Source: Polyangiales bacterium (lineage in GTDB: Bacteria > Myxococcota_A > Polyangia > Polyangiales > Houyiibacteriaceae). From it: a DNA stretch of 64,000 bases. The notes under the pieces are model-generated. The model worked only from the letters and a program-made list of their open reading frames with translations, ran no database searches and had not been told where the DNA came from. The stretch's first letter is position 1. Each line of letters starts with the position of its first letter. Location: contig OZ245758.1 in assembly GCA_965227405.1 (NCBI GenBank), positions 1,385,693 through 1,449,692 on the forward strand, written 5' to 3'. Position numbers and translations under genes: made by a program. This document shows positions 18,579 to 53,980 of the stretch, piece after piece.

Positions 18579-19529
18579 ATGACTCGCGCACGCTCCGAAT
18601 CCTACGACCTCGATTCAACCCCTTTCTACCACTGCATTTCGAGATGCGTACGCCGCGCATGGCTTTGCGGCCGCGACCCGTACACAGGACAAGACTTCGA
18701 ACACAGGAAAGACTGGATCGAAGAGCGTCTCTTCTTTCTCGCGGAGATCTTTGCCATCCAACTTTTTGCGTACGCGGTCATGTCCAACCACCTCCATATC
18801 GTGGTGCGAGTCGATCGCGCGTTGGCTCTGTCCTGGACCGACGAGGAGGTGGTCGAGCGCTACACGAGACTCTTCAAAAACTCCAAAGCGCGTCTGGATC
18901 CGCTGCCGAGTCACGCACGCAAGTCGCTGATCGCGTTGTGGCGCGAACGCCTTCACGATCTGTCTTGGATGATGCGCACGCTCAACGAGCACATTGCTCG
19001 GCGCGCCAACAAAGAAGACAACTGCACCGGCCGCTTCTGGGAGGGTCGCTTCAAGTCTCAACCGCTTCTCGATGAAACTGCGGTGCTCACATGCATGGCA
19101 TACGTCGACCTCAACGTCGTTCGGGCGGGCGAGGTTGAGTCGCTCGACGAAGCAATGCACACCTCGATCACGCGGCGGTTGAAATCGGCTCCGAGTGCGC
19201 CGCGCGGCCTCGCACCGTTCGAGGATCAAACTGGGAAGTCAGACATTGCGGTGCCCATGCATTTCCGCGACTACGTCGAGGTTCTCGAGTGGACGGGCCG
19301 GTGCTCACGCGCGTATGGACCCGGTGCACGCTTGCGCGGAAAACCGCCACAGCTTCTCACACAGCACAGTCTTGATTCGTCGACTTGGCTCGACACCATG
19401 CAAAGCCACGGTCTCTCCAAGCTTACCGCGCTGGGATCGACCTCAGAGATTGCCTCGTTTGCGACAAAGAAAGGTCGCACGTGGATCCGAGGAGCGGGTC
19501 TCGCCCGTGCTCGGACCTACCCTCGGTGA
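18579..19529 (+). CDS. HUH-family Y1 tyrosine transposase-like protein (IS200/IS605 TnpA-related long form, COG1943-like)
   Basis: HuH motif SNHLHIVV and the catalytic-Tyr region MAYVDLNVVRAGEV (YxxxNxVRAG). Also TGRFWEGRF. About 316 aa, so longer than minimal TnpA. No obvious terminal hairpins identified. Confidence 0.65.
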   Translation: MTRARSESYDLDSTPFYHCISRCVRRAWLCGRDPYTGQDFEHRKDWIEERLFFLAEIFAIQLFAYAVMSNHLHIVVRVDRALALSWTDEEVVERYTRLFKNSKARLDPLPSHARKSLIALWRERLHDLSWMMRTLNEHIARRANKEDNCTGRFWEGRFKSQPLLDETAVLTCMAYVDLNVVRAGEVESLDEAMHTSITRRLKSAPSAPRGLAPFEDQTGKSDIAVPMHFRDYVEVLEWTGRCSRAYGPGARLRGKPPQLLTQHSLDSSTWLDTMQSHGLSKLTALGSTSEIASFATKKGRTWIRGAGLARARTYPR

Positions 19530-50034: not shown

Positions 50035-50049
50035 GCCACAAATGGGGGT

Positions 50050-51075
50050 TCAGGCGATCATTCGCACTGCGTCTTCGACGTCGAGTTTGCTTCCGATGTA
50101 CAGCGGGGTTCGCTGGTGCAGCTCGGTTGGTTCGATGTCGAGAATCGCGCGCTTCCCGTCGGAGGCTTCGCCGCCTGCGGCTTCACACACAAACGCCAAG
50201 GGCGACGCTTCGTAGAGCAAGCGAAGTTTGCCCTGCAGGTTCTTCTGGTCCGAGGGATACGCAAAGATCCCACCGCGCAACAGGGTTCGGTGAAAGTCTG
50301 CGACCATCGCGCCGATATAACGCAGCCGATACGCGCCAGTTCCTTCGTCAGGGTTCTTGATCCAATCGACCCAACCACGAACGCCGGCATCCCACTTGTG
50401 ATAGTTGCCTTCGTTGATCGAGTAGGTCTTGCCACGTTCCGGAATCCGAATGTTCTCGTGGCTCAAGAAGAACTCACCGATCGCCGGATCCAACGTAAAG
50501 CCGTGCACACCATCACCGGTGGAGTACACGAACATGTTGGACGAACCGTAGATCACGTAGCCCGCGGCCACGATGTCCTTCCCCGGCTGTAGGCAATCGG
50601 CAACTGTGCCCGGCCCCGACGGCGTCTTACGCTTGTGAATCGAAAAGATGGTTCCAATCGACGCGTTGATATCGATGTTGCCCGACCCGTCGAGCGGATC
50701 AAACTGCAGCACGTACTTGCCTTGCGGGTACTGCGGGGGAACCAAAATCGGTTGCTCGATCTCTTCGCTGCCCATCACACACACGTGGCCGCCCTGCTGA
50801 ACGCAACTGACGATCGTGTCGTTGGCAAAGATGTCGAGCTTCTGAACCTCTTCACCCTGAACGTTGACCTGGCCGGTCAACCCCAAGATGTTCGCCAGTC
50901 CAGCTTTGCTGACCTGACTGCTGATGATCTTTGCGGCCAACGAGAGTTGGTGAAAGAGACCCGTGAAGTCACCCGTCGCGCCGCTCGCATTGCGCTGCCG
51001 ATCCAGCAAATGCTGCTCGAGCGTTTGCCCGTAGAACGTGGGACCGGAGGGACCAATCGAAAGGTGTTCAACCAC
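50050..51075 (-). CDS. fbp: fructose-1,6-bisphosphatase class I
   Basis: Metal-binding motif DPLDGSGNIDIN. Also GEEVQKLD, YRLRYIGAMVADFHRTLL, and full-length similarity to class I FBPase. Confidence 0.95.
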   Translation of the reverse strand: MVEHLSIGPSGPTFYGQTLEQHLLDRQRNASGATGDFTGLFHQLSLAAKIISSQVSKAGLANILGLTGQVNVQGEEVQKLDIFANDTIVSCVQQGGHVCVMGSEEIEQPILVPPQYPQGKYVLQFDPLDGSGNIDINASIGTIFSIHKRKTPSGPGTVADCLQPGKDIVAAGYVIYGSSNMFVYSTGDGVHGFTLDPAIGEFFLSHENIRIPERGKTYSINEGNYHKWDAGVRGWVDWIKNPDEGTGAYRLRYIGAMVADFHRTLLRGGIFAYPSDQKNLQGKLRLLYEASPLAFVCEAAGGEASDGKRAILDIEPTELHQRTPLYIGSKLDVEDAVRMIA

Positions 51076-51137
51076 GGTCGGGACCTAGCACACCCAAAAC
51101 GCGCTAGCTTCTTCTTCAGCAATATCCGACCGTTGGC

Positions 51138-51665
51138 GTGCCGATGAACCGAATCGCCCTGCCGCTGATGGTCGCGACGTTGATCACCTCGACGGCGTAC
51201 GCCGAGCCCACCGAAAGGGATCAACTGGTCTTCGCCGACCTGAGCTTGGGCGTGATCAGCGCCGGGTTCGAACAAGTCTTCGCGGACCGCGTCGGAGTGA
51301 GCGCAGCAGTCGGCGTGTACGGACCTTGGTACGTGGATCGACCCGTCAACATCCTCGCCTACAACCTCGAACTCCGGGTGTTCTGGTATCCGCTCGGAAC
51401 CGAGTCTCGCGCCACGCTCTACGTGTCGCCTGGCTTTCGTATCGGCCGAGCACGCGCTGACGACGAAGGCACAACACTACGCGGAGTGTCGTACGCACCA
51501 CGGCTAACGCTGGGCGGACACTTTCGGTTCGGACACTTTTTCTTCCGACTCGGCGCCGGCATCCAGCACCACAACGTCGACCTCGACAACCGACCCACGG
51601 GCGAGTCCGTCGACATTCACGGCGTCTACCCGGCCGTGGACATCTACGTCGGTGCTGCGTTGTAA
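51138..51665 (+). CDS. hypothetical secreted protein, probable small outer-membrane beta-barrel (paralog-like of 11000-11554)
   Basis: Signal peptide IALPLMVATLITSTAYA. Aromatic-rich alternating segments. Confidence 0.5.
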   Translation: MPMNRIALPLMVATLITSTAYAEPTERDQLVFADLSLGVISAGFEQVFADRVGVSAAVGVYGPWYVDRPVNILAYNLELRVFWYPLGTESRATLYVSPGFRIGRARADDEGTTLRGVSYAPRLTLGGHFRFGHFFFRLGAGIQHHNVDLDNRPTGESVDIHGVYPAVDIYVGAAL

Positions 51666-51692
51666 CCACCTCACCCAACCGCGTACCAAGGT

Positions 51693-51864
51693 GTTAACTT
51701 TGGGGACAGGTTAACTATTTAACCCACCCTCGATCTCCAAGTATCTGAGATCAGTGATCCCGGAAGCCAGACCGACGTCTTTTCCCAGGTCCGTCGCAAA
51801 ACGTGTTTTCGGGCACTTAGAGATCGAGGGTGGGTTAAATAGTTAACCTGTCCCCAAAGTTAAC
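51693..51864. repeat. 172-bp AT-rich element with perfect 45-bp terminal inverted repeats flanking an 82-bp core (MITE-like / large palindromic hairpin)
   Basis: Left arm 51693-51737 GTTAACTTTGGGGACAGGTTAACTATTTAACCCACCCTCGATCTC is the exact reverse complement of right arm 51820-51864. The arms begin and end with GTTAAC. Local GC is far below the surrounding genome. It sits between two convergent genes. Confidence 0.9.
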
Positions 51865-51879
51865 CCCCGAATGAGAGCC

Positions 51880-52476
51880 TCAGGCTTTACACGTCGTGTC
51901 GGTTTCTTTGGCGTCACGGCGCATCCAGACAAAGTCTCGAAACGCTTCTTCGGTACCCAGACCCAAGAAGGTGCTGTCGTCGCCCGCAGCAATTGCTGGT
52001 AGCCGCTCGTCAAAGGGACCGTCTCGCCACTCTCGGGTCCAGGTGTGCAGCAACTCCGCTGGCGACGCAGAGAGTTCAACACCGACATCCGAAGCGAGTG
52101 AGTTCACAACAGTAGGATCCGAGATGTCTCTGCCCTGAACCCAAAGCGCTCGGTACAACGCTCGACGAAGTCGTCGCGCCAAGTCCGGCGACTGCGACCT
52201 TGCGTCGATGATGGCCAACGTACCCAAATAGGAACTGGGTCGTATCTCGGGATTCACCACGTCGAGGTCAGGTTCACGCGCCCGAAGTCGCTCAACCTCC
52301 TCCCGAACCATCTCGGTTTCTCGAGGTGAAGTCTGAACCTTCTCGCGCCTCAAATCAGGCAAGTGCTCGATACCGCGCCACTCGATGAGATGCTCGAATC
52401 CCAAACGATGAATGCGCTCACTTTGGGCGTAGCAAAACGGGCAATTCAGGTCGCCGTAGAAGAGCAGGGTCTGCAC
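51880..52476 (-). CDS. DsbA-like thioredoxin-fold protein (CPFC active-site motif)
   Basis: LLFYGDLNCPFCYAQ is a CxxC in the DsbA/thioredoxin-fold context. Confidence 0.6.
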   Translation of the reverse strand: MQTLLFYGDLNCPFCYAQSERIHRLGFEHLIEWRGIEHLPDLRREKVQTSPRETEMVREEVERLRAREPDLDVVNPEIRPSSYLGTLAIIDARSQSPDLARRLRRALYRALWVQGRDISDPTVVNSLASDVGVELSASPAELLHTWTREWRDGPFDERLPAIAAGDDSTFLGLGTEEAFRDFVWMRRDAKETDTTCKA

Positions 52477-52558
52477 CGGCCGGATAGTCGGATGGCAAAG
52501 CCCAATTTCCTAGGCGATTAACAACTTGACACTCAGTGCCACTTTGCTAGATCAGAGC

Positions 52559-53980
52559 ATGGCCAAAGCTCTTCCTCGTGAAGGCCTCCCGCAAGAGGAG
52601 GTCATCCGCGCGCTCGACGCACTCAAGAACGACGACCTGCCCGTCGATGACGGCAAAGCGTGGGGCTACGTGTACCACGCAGGTCCGGAAGTCGCGGCGT
52701 TGCAGAAGCACGCGGTCACCGCGTTCATGAGCAAGAACGGTCTCGACCCCACGGCGTTCCCCAGCTTGGAAAAGTTGGAGAACGAAGTCCTCGACTGGTG
52801 CATCGACCACCTTCACGGCGACGACAAAGCCTGCGGAAGCTTCACCAGCGGTGGCACGGAAAGCTGCATGCTTTCGATCAAAGCCGCGCGCGATTACGCG
52901 AAGGTCGAAGGCACGCCCGAGATCATTCTCCCCACCACGGTCCACGCCGCGTTCCACAAGGGAGCGAAGTACTTCGGCTGTAAGGTCGTTCCGATTCCGG
53001 TCGACTCTGAAACGTTCAAGGCAGACCTCAACGCGCTACGCGAAGCGATCACCGACCAGACGGTACTGATCGTGGGTTCCGCCGCCGGGTACGCCCACGG
53101 CGTCATCGACCCGATCGAAGAGATGGCAGCCATCGCACAAGAGCACAACATCCTGATGCACGTCGACGGGTGCGTCGGGGCGTTTGTACTCAACCTCTTT
53201 GAAGAGCTGGGCGAAGACATTCCCAAGTTCGACTTCCGCGTGCCGGGTGTCACCTCGATCTCGATGGATCTGCACAAGTACGGTTTTGCACCCAAAGGCT
53301 CGTCGGTGCTCCTGCATCGCGATCCTGCGGTGCGCCGTGCGCAGTACTTCGCGTGCGCGTCGTGGTCGGGCTACTCAGTGGTCAACGCGACGATGCAAAG
53401 CACCAAGTCGGGTGGCCCGCTCGCAGGTGCGTGGGCGGTGATGCGCTATCTCGGCCGCGAGGGCTATCTCAAGCTCGCCAAAGGCATGCTCGATGCCCAA
53501 AAGCAGCTGCTGACCACCATCGAAACGATCGATGGGCTGCGCATTCTTGGCAAACCCAGCATGGGACTGATCGCGATTGCGTCCGAGACGGTGGATGTAT
53601 TCGCGCTTGCAGACGAACTGGGACGCAAGGGTTGGTTCGTCGTGCCGCAGCTTTCATTTGGCAACAGCCCTCGCAATCTTCACCTGCAGGTCGAGCCGGG
53701 CAACGTGCCCAAGACCGCCGACTTCTTGAAGGACCTGCGCGCCGCTGCGAAGCATGTGCAGGACAACCCGCCGGCAGCGCTGCCCAAGCCCTTGCAGCAA
53801 ATGGCGCAGGTTCTGACGCCAGAGATGGTGCAGACCAACTACAAGGAACTGATGGCGATGGCCGGTGCCGGCGGCGGCATCCCGAAGGAGCGCACGCAGA
53901 TCAACCAGATCCTCGACGCGCTGACACCGCAAGCGAAGGAAGCACTGTTGATCGAGTTCATCGGCGAGATGTTCTCCTAG
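52559..53980 (+). CDS. PLP-dependent group II decarboxylase-fold enzyme, sphingosine-1-phosphate lyase-like
   Basis: PLP-lysine region SMDLHKYGFAPKGSSVLL (compare SPL xDxHKYGxAPKGSSV); GGTESCMLSIKAARD; MHVDGCVGAF. The ORF is open from the TTG at 52526, but that TTG forms a TTGACA -35-like hexamer, so ATG 52559 is preferred. Confidence 0.75.
   Translation: MAKALPREGLPQEEVIRALDALKNDDLPVDDGKAWGYVYHAGPEVAALQKHAVTAFMSKNGLDPTAFPSLEKLENEVLDWCIDHLHGDDKACGSFTSGGTESCMLSIKAARDYAKVEGTPEIILPTTVHAAFHKGAKYFGCKVVPIPVDSETFKADLNALREAITDQTVLIVGSAAGYAHGVIDPIEEMAAIAQEHNILMHVDGCVGAFVLNLFEELGEDIPKFDFRVPGVTSISMDLHKYGFAPKGSSVLLHRDPAVRRAQYFACASWSGYSVVNATMQSTKSGGPLAGAWAVMRYLGREGYLKLAKGMLDAQKQLLTTIETIDGLRILGKPSMGLIAIASETVDVFALADELGRKGWFVVPQLSFGNSPRNLHLQVEPGNVPKTADFLKDLRAAAKHVQDNPPAALPKPLQQMAQVLTPEMVQTNYKELMAMAGAGGGIPKERTQINQILDALTPQAKEALLIEFIGEMFS

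Follow-up and report, generated by a model that had tools for sequence, protein, structure and literature searches.

The 64,000-nucleotide stretch of Polyangiales bacterium contig OZ245758.1 analyzed here (positions 1,385,693 to 1,449,692; below, the window) contains a long palindrome at positions 51690-51867, which we call Ew and which lies between two convergent genes. Ew is probably one copy of a lineage-specific, non-coding, intergenic family of palindromic repeats found in an uncultured Myxococcota clade of ~60% GC. The family resembles REPINs (pairs of inverted repetitive extragenic palindromic, or REP, sequences that form a hairpin) and MITEs (miniature inverted-repeat transposable elements). 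That it is dispersed and of a mobile type, by whichever of the two mechanisms discussed below, is quite likely. The family is previously undescribed; small palindromic repeats as a kind of element are already well known, and nothing here indicates a novel type of system. In Proteobacteria, repeats of this sort (REP/REPIN, MITE) between genes are familiar, and a literature search found no description of a REPIN, a MITE or a RAYT (REP-associated tyrosine transposase) for Myxococcota or, specifically, for myxobacteria. A repeat family of this type breaks short-read assemblies, flags places where genes are gained or lost, and may influence how stable neighboring mRNAs are at their 3' ends. One copy and one putative remnant are known in 64 kb, and Ew is best described as REPIN-like or, with lower probability, MITE-like; it is not filed here as a proven REPIN.

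Structure and composition of Ew

The element, its parts and the two genes that enclose it are as follows.

51138..51665, + strand: upstream convergent gene, a 175-aa open reading frame (ORF) with a signal-peptide-like N-terminus, whose stop lies 24 nt before Ew
51690..51867, no strand: the complete palindrome Ew, 178 bp with the imperfectly paired outer and inner positions counted
51692..51710, + strand: left terminal box TGTTAACTTTGGGGACAGG, a variant of the family box GGTT[C/A]AnT[T/C][T/C]GGGGACAGG
51693..51737, + strand: left arm GTTAACTTTGGGGACAGGTTAACTATTTAACCCACCCTCGATCTC, 45 nt, exact reverse complement of the right arm
51709..51724, + strand: left-arm sub-palindrome GGTTAA-CTAT-TTAACC, a 6-bp stem adjoining the GGGGAC box (p=0.013 versus shuffles)
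51738..51819, no strand: core, 82 nt, whose outer 16 nt on each side pair at ~62%
51820..51864, - strand: right arm, 45 nt, exact reverse complement of the left arm
51833..51848, - strand: right-arm copy of the sub-palindrome GGTTAA-CTAT-TTAACC
51847..51865, - strand: right terminal box GGTTAACTTTGGGGACAGG, 1 mismatch to GGTTCANTTYGGGGACAGG
51880..52476, - strand: downstream convergent gene for a DsbA-like thioredoxin-fold protein (Pfam DSBA), whose stop lies 12 nt beyond Ew
Flanks of Ew: left CCGCGTACCAAGG, right CCCGAATGAGAGCC

A first-pass annotation of this DNA had described a 172-bp element at 51693-51864, which corresponds to the perfect arms and core of Ew. Its account of the arms was accurate: the two copies of GTTAACTTTGGGGACAGGTTAACTATTTAACCCACCCTCGATCTC at 51693-51737 / 51820-51864 pair with 0 mismatches, and 100 dinucleotide-preserving shuffles gave 0 matches. 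The 82-nt core carries the mini-palindrome AAAACGTGTTTT, as had been reported. The pairing does not stop at the arms, as a repeat finder extends it to 64-nt arms of 89% complementarity (51690-51753 / 51804-51867) around a loop of 50 nt (51754-51803), in which there are small local hairpins. The outer part of the arm has 0 mismatches in 45 positions and the inner part 7 in 19, a distribution that would arise by chance with a probability of ~8e-5 according to our own hypergeometric estimate. This contrast suggests that the copy is young or that its ends are under selection or subject to correction; the pattern fits conserved functional ends, and the arms may have been homogenized recently.

Across the window, only Ew and one 21-nt palindrome qualify as inverted repeats with a length of 20 nt or more (within 400 nt), and the Ew arm has no second copy there even if 3 mismatches are allowed. 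As RNA, either strand is predicted to form a single long hairpin, with an energy of -111 kcal/mol on the + strand and -120 kcal/mol on the - strand (z ~ -15). The core contains no ORF in the window-wide listing of at least 60 aa, and no promoter-like site was found within 51000-52700. The GC content is 61.6% in the window, ~49% in Ew and, by direct count, 44% in each arm. The AT-rich contrast pointed out earlier is thus real, but smaller than claimed, since the genome figure of ~69% GC that it had been measured against was wrong.

The heptamer GGTTAAC is repeated within each arm: it stands at the terminus, recurs 17 nt further inward and is then followed by the inverted TTTAACC. A separate 14-nt inverted repeat of 93% identity (51323-51336 / 51679-51692, ACCTTGGTACGTGG / CCGCGTACCAAGGT) pairs the left flank of the hairpin with a site in the 175-aa ORF 342 nt upstream; we estimate that ~0.2 such pairs are expected per 1.6 kb, which is near chance.

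The Ew family in related loci

The following loci related to the window were obtained. Gene order around Ew is kept in all of them (L016-L030, L038).

L019, Logan contig SRR23272279: 97.8% nucleotide identity to the window
L020, ENA contig: 85-89% nucleotide identity to the window
L016 and L017/L018, ENA contigs: ~75-82% nucleotide identity to the window
L021-L030, Logan contigs: ~76-77% nucleotide identity to the window
L038, Logan contig: neighborhood of the fructose-1,6-bisphosphatase (FBPase) and pyridoxal phosphate (PLP)-dependent decarboxylase genes as in the window

An inverted-repeat scan of these loci returned four sister elements, E1-E4, which are listed together with a short match in the window.

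E1, L017 2943-3110: 39-nt arms (97%), loop of 90 nt, 168 bp, between two same-strand genes
E2, L017 16970-17294: 41-nt outer arms (90%) and nested 49-nt arms (80%), 325 bp, flanked by convergent genes
E3, L020 8106-8232: 38-nt arms (84%), loop of 51 nt, 127 bp, where the LPG-synthase and FBPase genes converge
E4, L021 12940-12987: 48-bp palindrome at the junction occupied by E2
Window 50043..50052, + strand: putative remnant of a second family copy, TGGGGGTTCA, fused to the FBPase stop codon

What these hairpins have in common is a terminal box of 16-19 nt, GGTT[C/A]AnT[T/C][T/C]GGGGAC(AGG), which stands inverted at both ends (searchable form GGTTMANTTYGGGGAC). The outermost 16-19 nt of Ew (GGTTAACTTTGGGGACAGG), E3 (GGTTCATTTCGGGGACAGG and GGTTCAGTTTGGGGACAGG) and E1 (GGTTCATTCTGGGGACG) align with each other, whereas the ends of E2 and E4 read ...GAT(T)TCGGGGACGCGTAG. 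Local alignment against shuffled sequences gave z values of 5.5 for Ew-E3, 6.3 for E1-E3 and 6.4 for E2-E4, and in our alignment A3 the arms of Ew and E3 are identical at 26 of 40 positions. Ew, E3 and E1 are treated as one family because E3 links them through its significant scores with both of the others. E2 and E4 form a probable sister subfamily, to judge from the ATTCTGGGGACG that E1 and E2, which reside in one genome, have in common. The tetranucleotide GTAG is present in E1, E2 and E4 and absent from Ew and E3.

The resemblance of Ew and E3 includes the layout of their arms. In both elements a short sub-palindrome, specific to the element, comes after each box; it is significant in Ew and, for E3, in the right arm (p=0.0006), and the GGTTAAC set of Ew has its counterpart in the E3 heptamers GGTTCAG, GGGTCAG and CTGACCC. 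As a further shared trait, we considered whether the terminal heptamer pairs with a more internal part of its own arm; this was dropped, as such pairing is significant only in Ew and in the left arm of E3.

The first-pass annotation had suggested a foreign or mobile origin, and this has largely been borne out: hairpins with the same box occupy other intergenic sites in relatives at which the window is empty. The E2 junction measures 71 bp in the window versus 368 bp in L017, and the E3 junction 13 bp in the window versus 189 bp in L020. Five elements were found in ~160 kb of this lineage, two of them within 21 kb of one genome (L017). Most copies lie between convergent genes, and they do so at differing intergenic sites in relatives. 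Comparison of the loci shows that gains and losses of copies are independent of the genes on either side. The decamer TGGGGGTTCA at 50043-50052 matches the left junction of E3 in L020 (8102-8111), where 4 flanking nucleotides precede the initial 6 nt of the E3 box, and it looks like what is left of a deleted family copy. The FBPase stop codon in the window is supplied by the TCA in the box portion of this decamer.

The junction between the MlrC and FGE-sulfatase-like genes, where E2 and E4 are found, is variable in other ways as well. The two genes are spaced by 0 bp in the window. The junction contains the 325-bp E2 in L017 and the 48-bp palindrome E4 in L021; in L020 (12953-13469) it is filled with 518 bp of unrelated DNA that includes a (GGCATC)n microsatellite, and in L016 (16892-19954) with an extra gene for a 1020-aa protein with an HZS_alpha domain.

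Presence and absence of Ew

Ew is present in the ~98% identical strain, as contig L019 carries the DsbA gene and its first 30 nucleotides start inside the right arm of Ew, to which they are identical. The fact that L019 ends in the arm is also an example of an inverted repeat breaking a short-read assembly graph. The more distant L017/L018 have the FBPase and decarboxylase genes in divergent orientation only 80 bp apart, and the entire window segment ~51093-52522, which comprises the 175-aa ORF, the hairpin and the DsbA gene, is absent from them. The closest syntenic relative, L020, retains a 172-aa ortholog of the 175-aa ORF, which is followed by 84 bp versus 857 bp in the window, with both the hairpin and the DsbA gene missing. 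The left edge of the difference between L020 and the window falls where the hairpin begins on its left side. Ew is thus neither single copy everywhere nor without empty sites, the situation that the first-pass annotation had associated with a conserved gene-specific hairpin: family hairpins are found elsewhere, and L020 is without Ew after its 172-aa gene.

A global alignment of the L020 gap with the window is scattered into fragments. A hand alignment (GCGTACC...CCTCAG) would give a precise empty site in L020 plus a deletion of the DsbA gene, and we regard it as suggestive only. The DsbA gene is absent from L017, L018, L020, L021 and L038. The gap between the FBPase and decarboxylase genes is taken up by unrelated genes in other relatives, with a 421-aa ORF in L021-L030, and ORFs of 1223 aa and 438 aa in L038. 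A relative of 72% GC (L039) showed no synteny with the window and no family member.

Transposase candidates and database searches

JGI metagenomes were scanned with the family box in the form GGTTMANTTYGGGGACAGGKT, which gave six matches. Five of the six are on low-GC contigs, are without a partner arm and look like chance. The sixth is on a soil metagenome contig, which is listed here with a distantly Y1_Tnp-like ORF of the window.

L036 (Ga0308176_10081218), 2535-2598: four tandem direct boxes GGTTCAATTCGG(GGACAGG) on a contig of 55% GC
Window 18579-19529, + strand: RAYT-like ORF of 316 aa; Y1_Tnp 23.4 bits (cut-off 23), REP_Tyr_transpos 37.8 bits (cut-off 80)

An ORF starting with MGRAARVVLPGCAHHVTQRGNHQQDVFF... 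lies ~60 nt downstream of the L036 boxes and is cut at 126 nt by the end of the contig. Its N-terminus reads MGRAARVVLPGCAHHVTQRGNHQQDVFFCDTDRDLYVALLRD. This fragment, which is too short for such a search, has no Pfam or NCBIfam match, and shares 57.5% identity (E=2e-8) with a plasmid protein of Skermanella that is annotated as a transposase. The Skermanella protein scores 37.7 bits with Pfam Y1_Tnp (cut-off 23) and 74.9 bits with NCBIfam REP_Tyr_transpos, the model of REP-associated tyrosine transposases (cut-off 80). As a rough estimate, the probability that a chance box match would fall this near the start of a Y1 transposase is well below 1%. A Y1/HUH (RAYT-like) transposase is the sole gene that we have seen adjoining a box.

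The RAYT-like ORF of the window contains the HUH motif SNHLHIVV. It is the sole member of its cluster at 90% identity, and a PDB sequence search with it returned nothing relevant. It cannot be called the cognate enzyme, because its flanks are without a box or a hairpin; it also has Phe at the position of a Tyr in the aligned homolog. No transposase other than this Y1-like ORF was seen among the annotated ORFs around Ew. The cognate transposase with matching ends that the first-pass annotation had proposed to look for did not appear either: GTDB representative genomes (scanned with a degenerate motif), JGI metagenomes, plasmids, phages and viral contigs yielded no autonomous element in which such ends enclose a transposase gene, and no cognate DDE transposase.

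Searches for Ew itself gave little. Scans of viral contigs and blastn against plasmids and phages found 0 matches. Rfam produced nothing at gathering thresholds and, at permissive E-values, only miRNA-precursor models below threshold, of the generic kind that any long hairpin attracts. A literature search on the box sequence retrieved only unrelated eukaryotic, viral and mycobacterial papers.

Mechanism and alternative explanations

The terminal boxes would be the recognition ends for a trans-acting enzyme, and the likeliest enzyme would be a Y1/HUH transposase (RAYT- or IS200-like), with the element moving as a hairpin of single-stranded DNA. Mobilization of this type would explain why target duplications are missing and why conserved ends enclose a variable spacer that keeps the hairpin. 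We think that Y1/HUH single-stranded DNA mobilization is the most likely mechanism and that a DDE-type MITE mechanism comes second. Even so, mobilization of the family by a RAYT-like enzyme is a tentative proposal, for which we would give somewhat less than an even chance. A more specific version of it is doubtful: the family could be the first REPIN-RAYT-type system in Myxococcota, composed of long doublets of 130-330 bp whose GGTTCAnTTyGGGGACAGG ends (16-19 nt) are the Y1/HUH substrate, with arm heptamers co-varying in each element (GGTTAAC in Ew, GG[T/G]TCAG in E3) and with the perfect 45-nt arms resulting from hairpin-dependent selection or correction and not from youth.

Several observations weigh against the idea of a mobile, REPIN-like family. 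The window holds one copy only, plus the remnant. The similarity of Ew to E1 and to E2 is not significant on its own in local alignment against shuffles, and E2 and E4 may be a separate subfamily. The sub-palindromes of E1 and E2 are not significant versus shuffles, and DNA folds of the arms alone are no more stable than those of shuffled sequences. The empty site for Ew in L020 is not clean, as the DsbA gene is gone too. Among GTDB representative genomes (one per species), the scan, which used the degenerate arm motif and not the family box, gave 10 matches that are all due to chance, as they are in unrelated, mostly low-GC genomes or in heptad repeats. The exact 22-mer of the arm has 0 matches in JGI metagenomes. 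The Y1 link comes from a single truncated contig of unknown taxon (L036), one of six pattern matches. In the window, the flanks of the RAYT-like ORF 18579-19529 contain no box, hairpin or repeat, and its segment GRFWEGRFKSQ has Phe where GTLWEGRYKST of the Skermanella protein has the Tyr expected to be catalytic.

According to the classical MITE explanation, Ew is an internally deleted derivative of a DDE insertion sequence (for example, an IS630/Tc1-like one that targets TA or an IS5-like one that targets TTAA) and moves by cut-and-paste through its long terminal inverted repeats. We consider this unlikely, even though Ew has long terminal inverted repeats, a small size, no coding capacity and a more AT-rich composition than its surroundings, and a dispersed family with presence/absence differences suits a MITE as well as a REPIN. 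The GTTAAC ends of Ew, which had earlier been taken as TTAA/GTTAAC-type termini, could hide a palindromic TA or TTAA duplication. However, the homologous ends of E3 and E1 read GGTTCA, and hence the GTTAAC of Ew is a variant of its own box, to which the TTAA belongs, and not a duplicated TTAA/TA target. Furthermore, the flanks of Ew, E1 and E3, read directly, contain no direct repeat, so there is no target duplication of fixed length beside any of them, no transposase-encoding element bounded by such ends turned up in the collections listed above, and the only gene adjoining a box belongs to the Y1/HUH and not to the DDE type.

The other two explanations dispense with mobility. A long bidirectional terminator or mRNA-stabilizing hairpin, evolved in place for the 175-aa and DsbA-like genes, was an alternative already in the first-pass annotation. 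Ew indeed fills the 214-bp gap between the two convergent stop codons, its fold is extremely stable on both strands, and it is conserved in the ~98% identical strain. Nevertheless, this explanation is very improbable. There is no U-tract after the stem on either strand, and a terminator scan returned only weak unrelated sites. Since the other convergent pairs in the window (50034/50050 and 55515/55516) are spaced by 0-15 bp and have no hairpin, Ew is not the normal terminator of this genome. Hairpins with the same box occur at unrelated loci in relatives, and L020 retains the upstream gene without the hairpin. Termination may still have followed as a by-product of the insertion. We find it just as hard to believe that a local rearrangement (fold-back priming or template switching) perfected an older imperfect palindrome that has no mobility of its own, an event that might mark the junction of a gain or loss of the DsbA gene. 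Outward extension from an old seed palindrome predicts the non-random mismatches (0/45 in the outer and 7/19 in the inner part), the hairpin-plus-DsbA indel relative to L020 has its left edge at the left end of the hairpin, and the gap between the FBPase and PLP-decarboxylase genes is a hotspot of gene content. The perfect outer part is, however, the very portion shared with E3 and E1 at other loci, which means that it is inherited family sequence and not a copied local flank. Homogenization of the arms could have taken place on top of a mobile-element origin.

Membership in other classes of structured DNA was also considered and rejected. Ew is not an intrinsic (Rho-independent) terminator, which consists of a short GC-rich stem-loop and a U-tract, as neither strand has a T-run after the stem. 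Its ends GGTTAAC / GTTAACA do not fit the RYYYAAC / GTTRRRY of integron attC sites, and its 172-178 bp exceed their 57-141 bp; there is no integrase among the neighboring genes, and the sister elements are not attached to cassettes. An inverton is rejected because the region 51000-52700 is without a promoter-like site, no neighboring gene encodes a recombinase, and only 50-82 bp lie between the arms. Myxobacteria are the classic hosts of retrons, but none of the annotated neighbors adjoining Ew is a reverse transcriptase.

As for the effect of this REPIN-like element on its neighbors, Ew fills the 3' untranslated region that the 175-aa and DsbA-like genes have in common and is for this reason probably transcribed into a long stem-loop that ends both mRNAs, in analogy to REP/BIME (bacterial interspersed mosaic element), ERIC (enterobacterial repetitive intergenic consensus) and Correia elements. 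By the same analogy, the RNA stem-loop could block read-through and 3' exonucleases, or it could attract RNase III.

Flanking genes

The first-pass annotation correctly placed the hairpin between convergent genes and correctly called one of the products DsbA-like; its label of an outer membrane protein for the other, the 175-aa ORF 51138-51665, finds no backing in Pfam, where this ORF has no match. The ORF contains a 15-nt tandem direct repeat (51515-51544, CGGACACTTTCGGTT / CGGACACTTTTTCTT, 80%), which encodes GHFRFGHFFF. Homologs of the DsbA-like protein are at most 48% identical to it, with the best matches in Myxococcota, Sandaracinaceae and Polyangium, and the neighborhoods of these homologs (best 48% identity) have neither synteny with the window nor a hairpin. 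Exact-protein look-ups of the flanking ORFs gave no match. The citrate synthase encoded 9.4 kb from Ew has relatives at 96% and 92% identity.

The gap 51077-52522 between the FBPase gene (50050-51075, - strand) and the gene of the PLP-dependent decarboxylase (52562-53980, + strand) is a gene-content hotspot among syntenic relatives, and the conserved right border of this hotspot begins at AACTTGACAC, window position 52523. The decarboxylase ORF was listed from a TTG at 52526 (484 aa). It probably starts ~11-12 codons later, as its orthologs have 472-473 aa, and the translation from the ATG at 52562 (472 aa) is 100% identical over its full length to the 473-aa entry P0150.

Comparison with known systems

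IS200/IS605-derived palindrome-associated elements (PATEs) and the ends of IS200 are similar to the Ew family in that a Y1/HUH enzyme acts on single-stranded DNA hairpins, as we propose for Ew, and in that no target duplication is made. The ends of IS200/IS605 elements are asymmetric, with different subterminal hairpins on the left and on the right in place of terminal inverted repeats. The ends of the Ew family, in contrast, are inverted copies of each other.

Bacterial MITEs that are palindromic over nearly their full length, such as the Correia elements of Neisseria, the enterobacterial ERIC/IRU (intergenic repeat unit) sequences, RUP (repeat unit of pneumococcus) and the Tn3-derived TIMEs (Tn3-derived inverted-repeat miniature elements), are likewise non-coding elements of ~100-300 bp with long inverted ends. 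They are intergenic and often found at the 3' ends of genes, and their stem-loops are co-transcribed and affect mRNA stability. They have defined target duplications (TA in Correia elements, 5 bp in TIMEs) and known or inferred DDE parents. The Ew family differs from them in that it shows no duplication and no DDE parent was found for it.

The closest counterparts are REPINs. These contain two conserved 16-mers in inverted orientation; the spacer between them is less conserved but maintains the hairpin, and the two REPs can alternatively adopt a "clover" fold (Bertels & Rainey 2011, PMC3116915). REPINs are mobilized by the Y1/HUH transposases called RAYTs and have been described in Pseudomonas and Enterobacteria (REPIN/RAYT criteria in Bertels et al. 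2017, PMC5581495). In a REPIN-RAYT system the 16-mer is strongly over-represented, with tens to hundreds of copies in the extragenic DNA of one genome, each REP unit is a short imperfect palindrome beside a conserved motif (classically GTAG), and the RAYT gene is single-copy and flanked by the REP/REPIN sequence. The size of the Ew family counts against equating the two: its members measure 127-330 bp, whereas 71 bp lie between the two terminal 16-mers of the Pseudomonas GI REPIN (PMC3116915). They are also far more divergent among themselves, Ew is without GTAG, the RAYT-like gene of the window is not flanked by a box, and the host belongs to Myxococcota, a phylum for which our literature search found no REPIN/RAYT report. 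Like REPINs, members of the Ew family have conserved ends of ~16 nt in inverted orientation and a less conserved spacer that preserves the hairpin. They are extragenic, make no target duplication and are gained and lost at orthologous sites. In some copies, sub-palindromes beside the box parallel the clover fold, and on one contig (L036) the box stands directly upstream of a RAYT-like gene. If this link to a RAYT is true, the REPIN-RAYT relationship, which has been proposed to be long-term and vertically inherited, would extend to another phylum and to much longer doublets.

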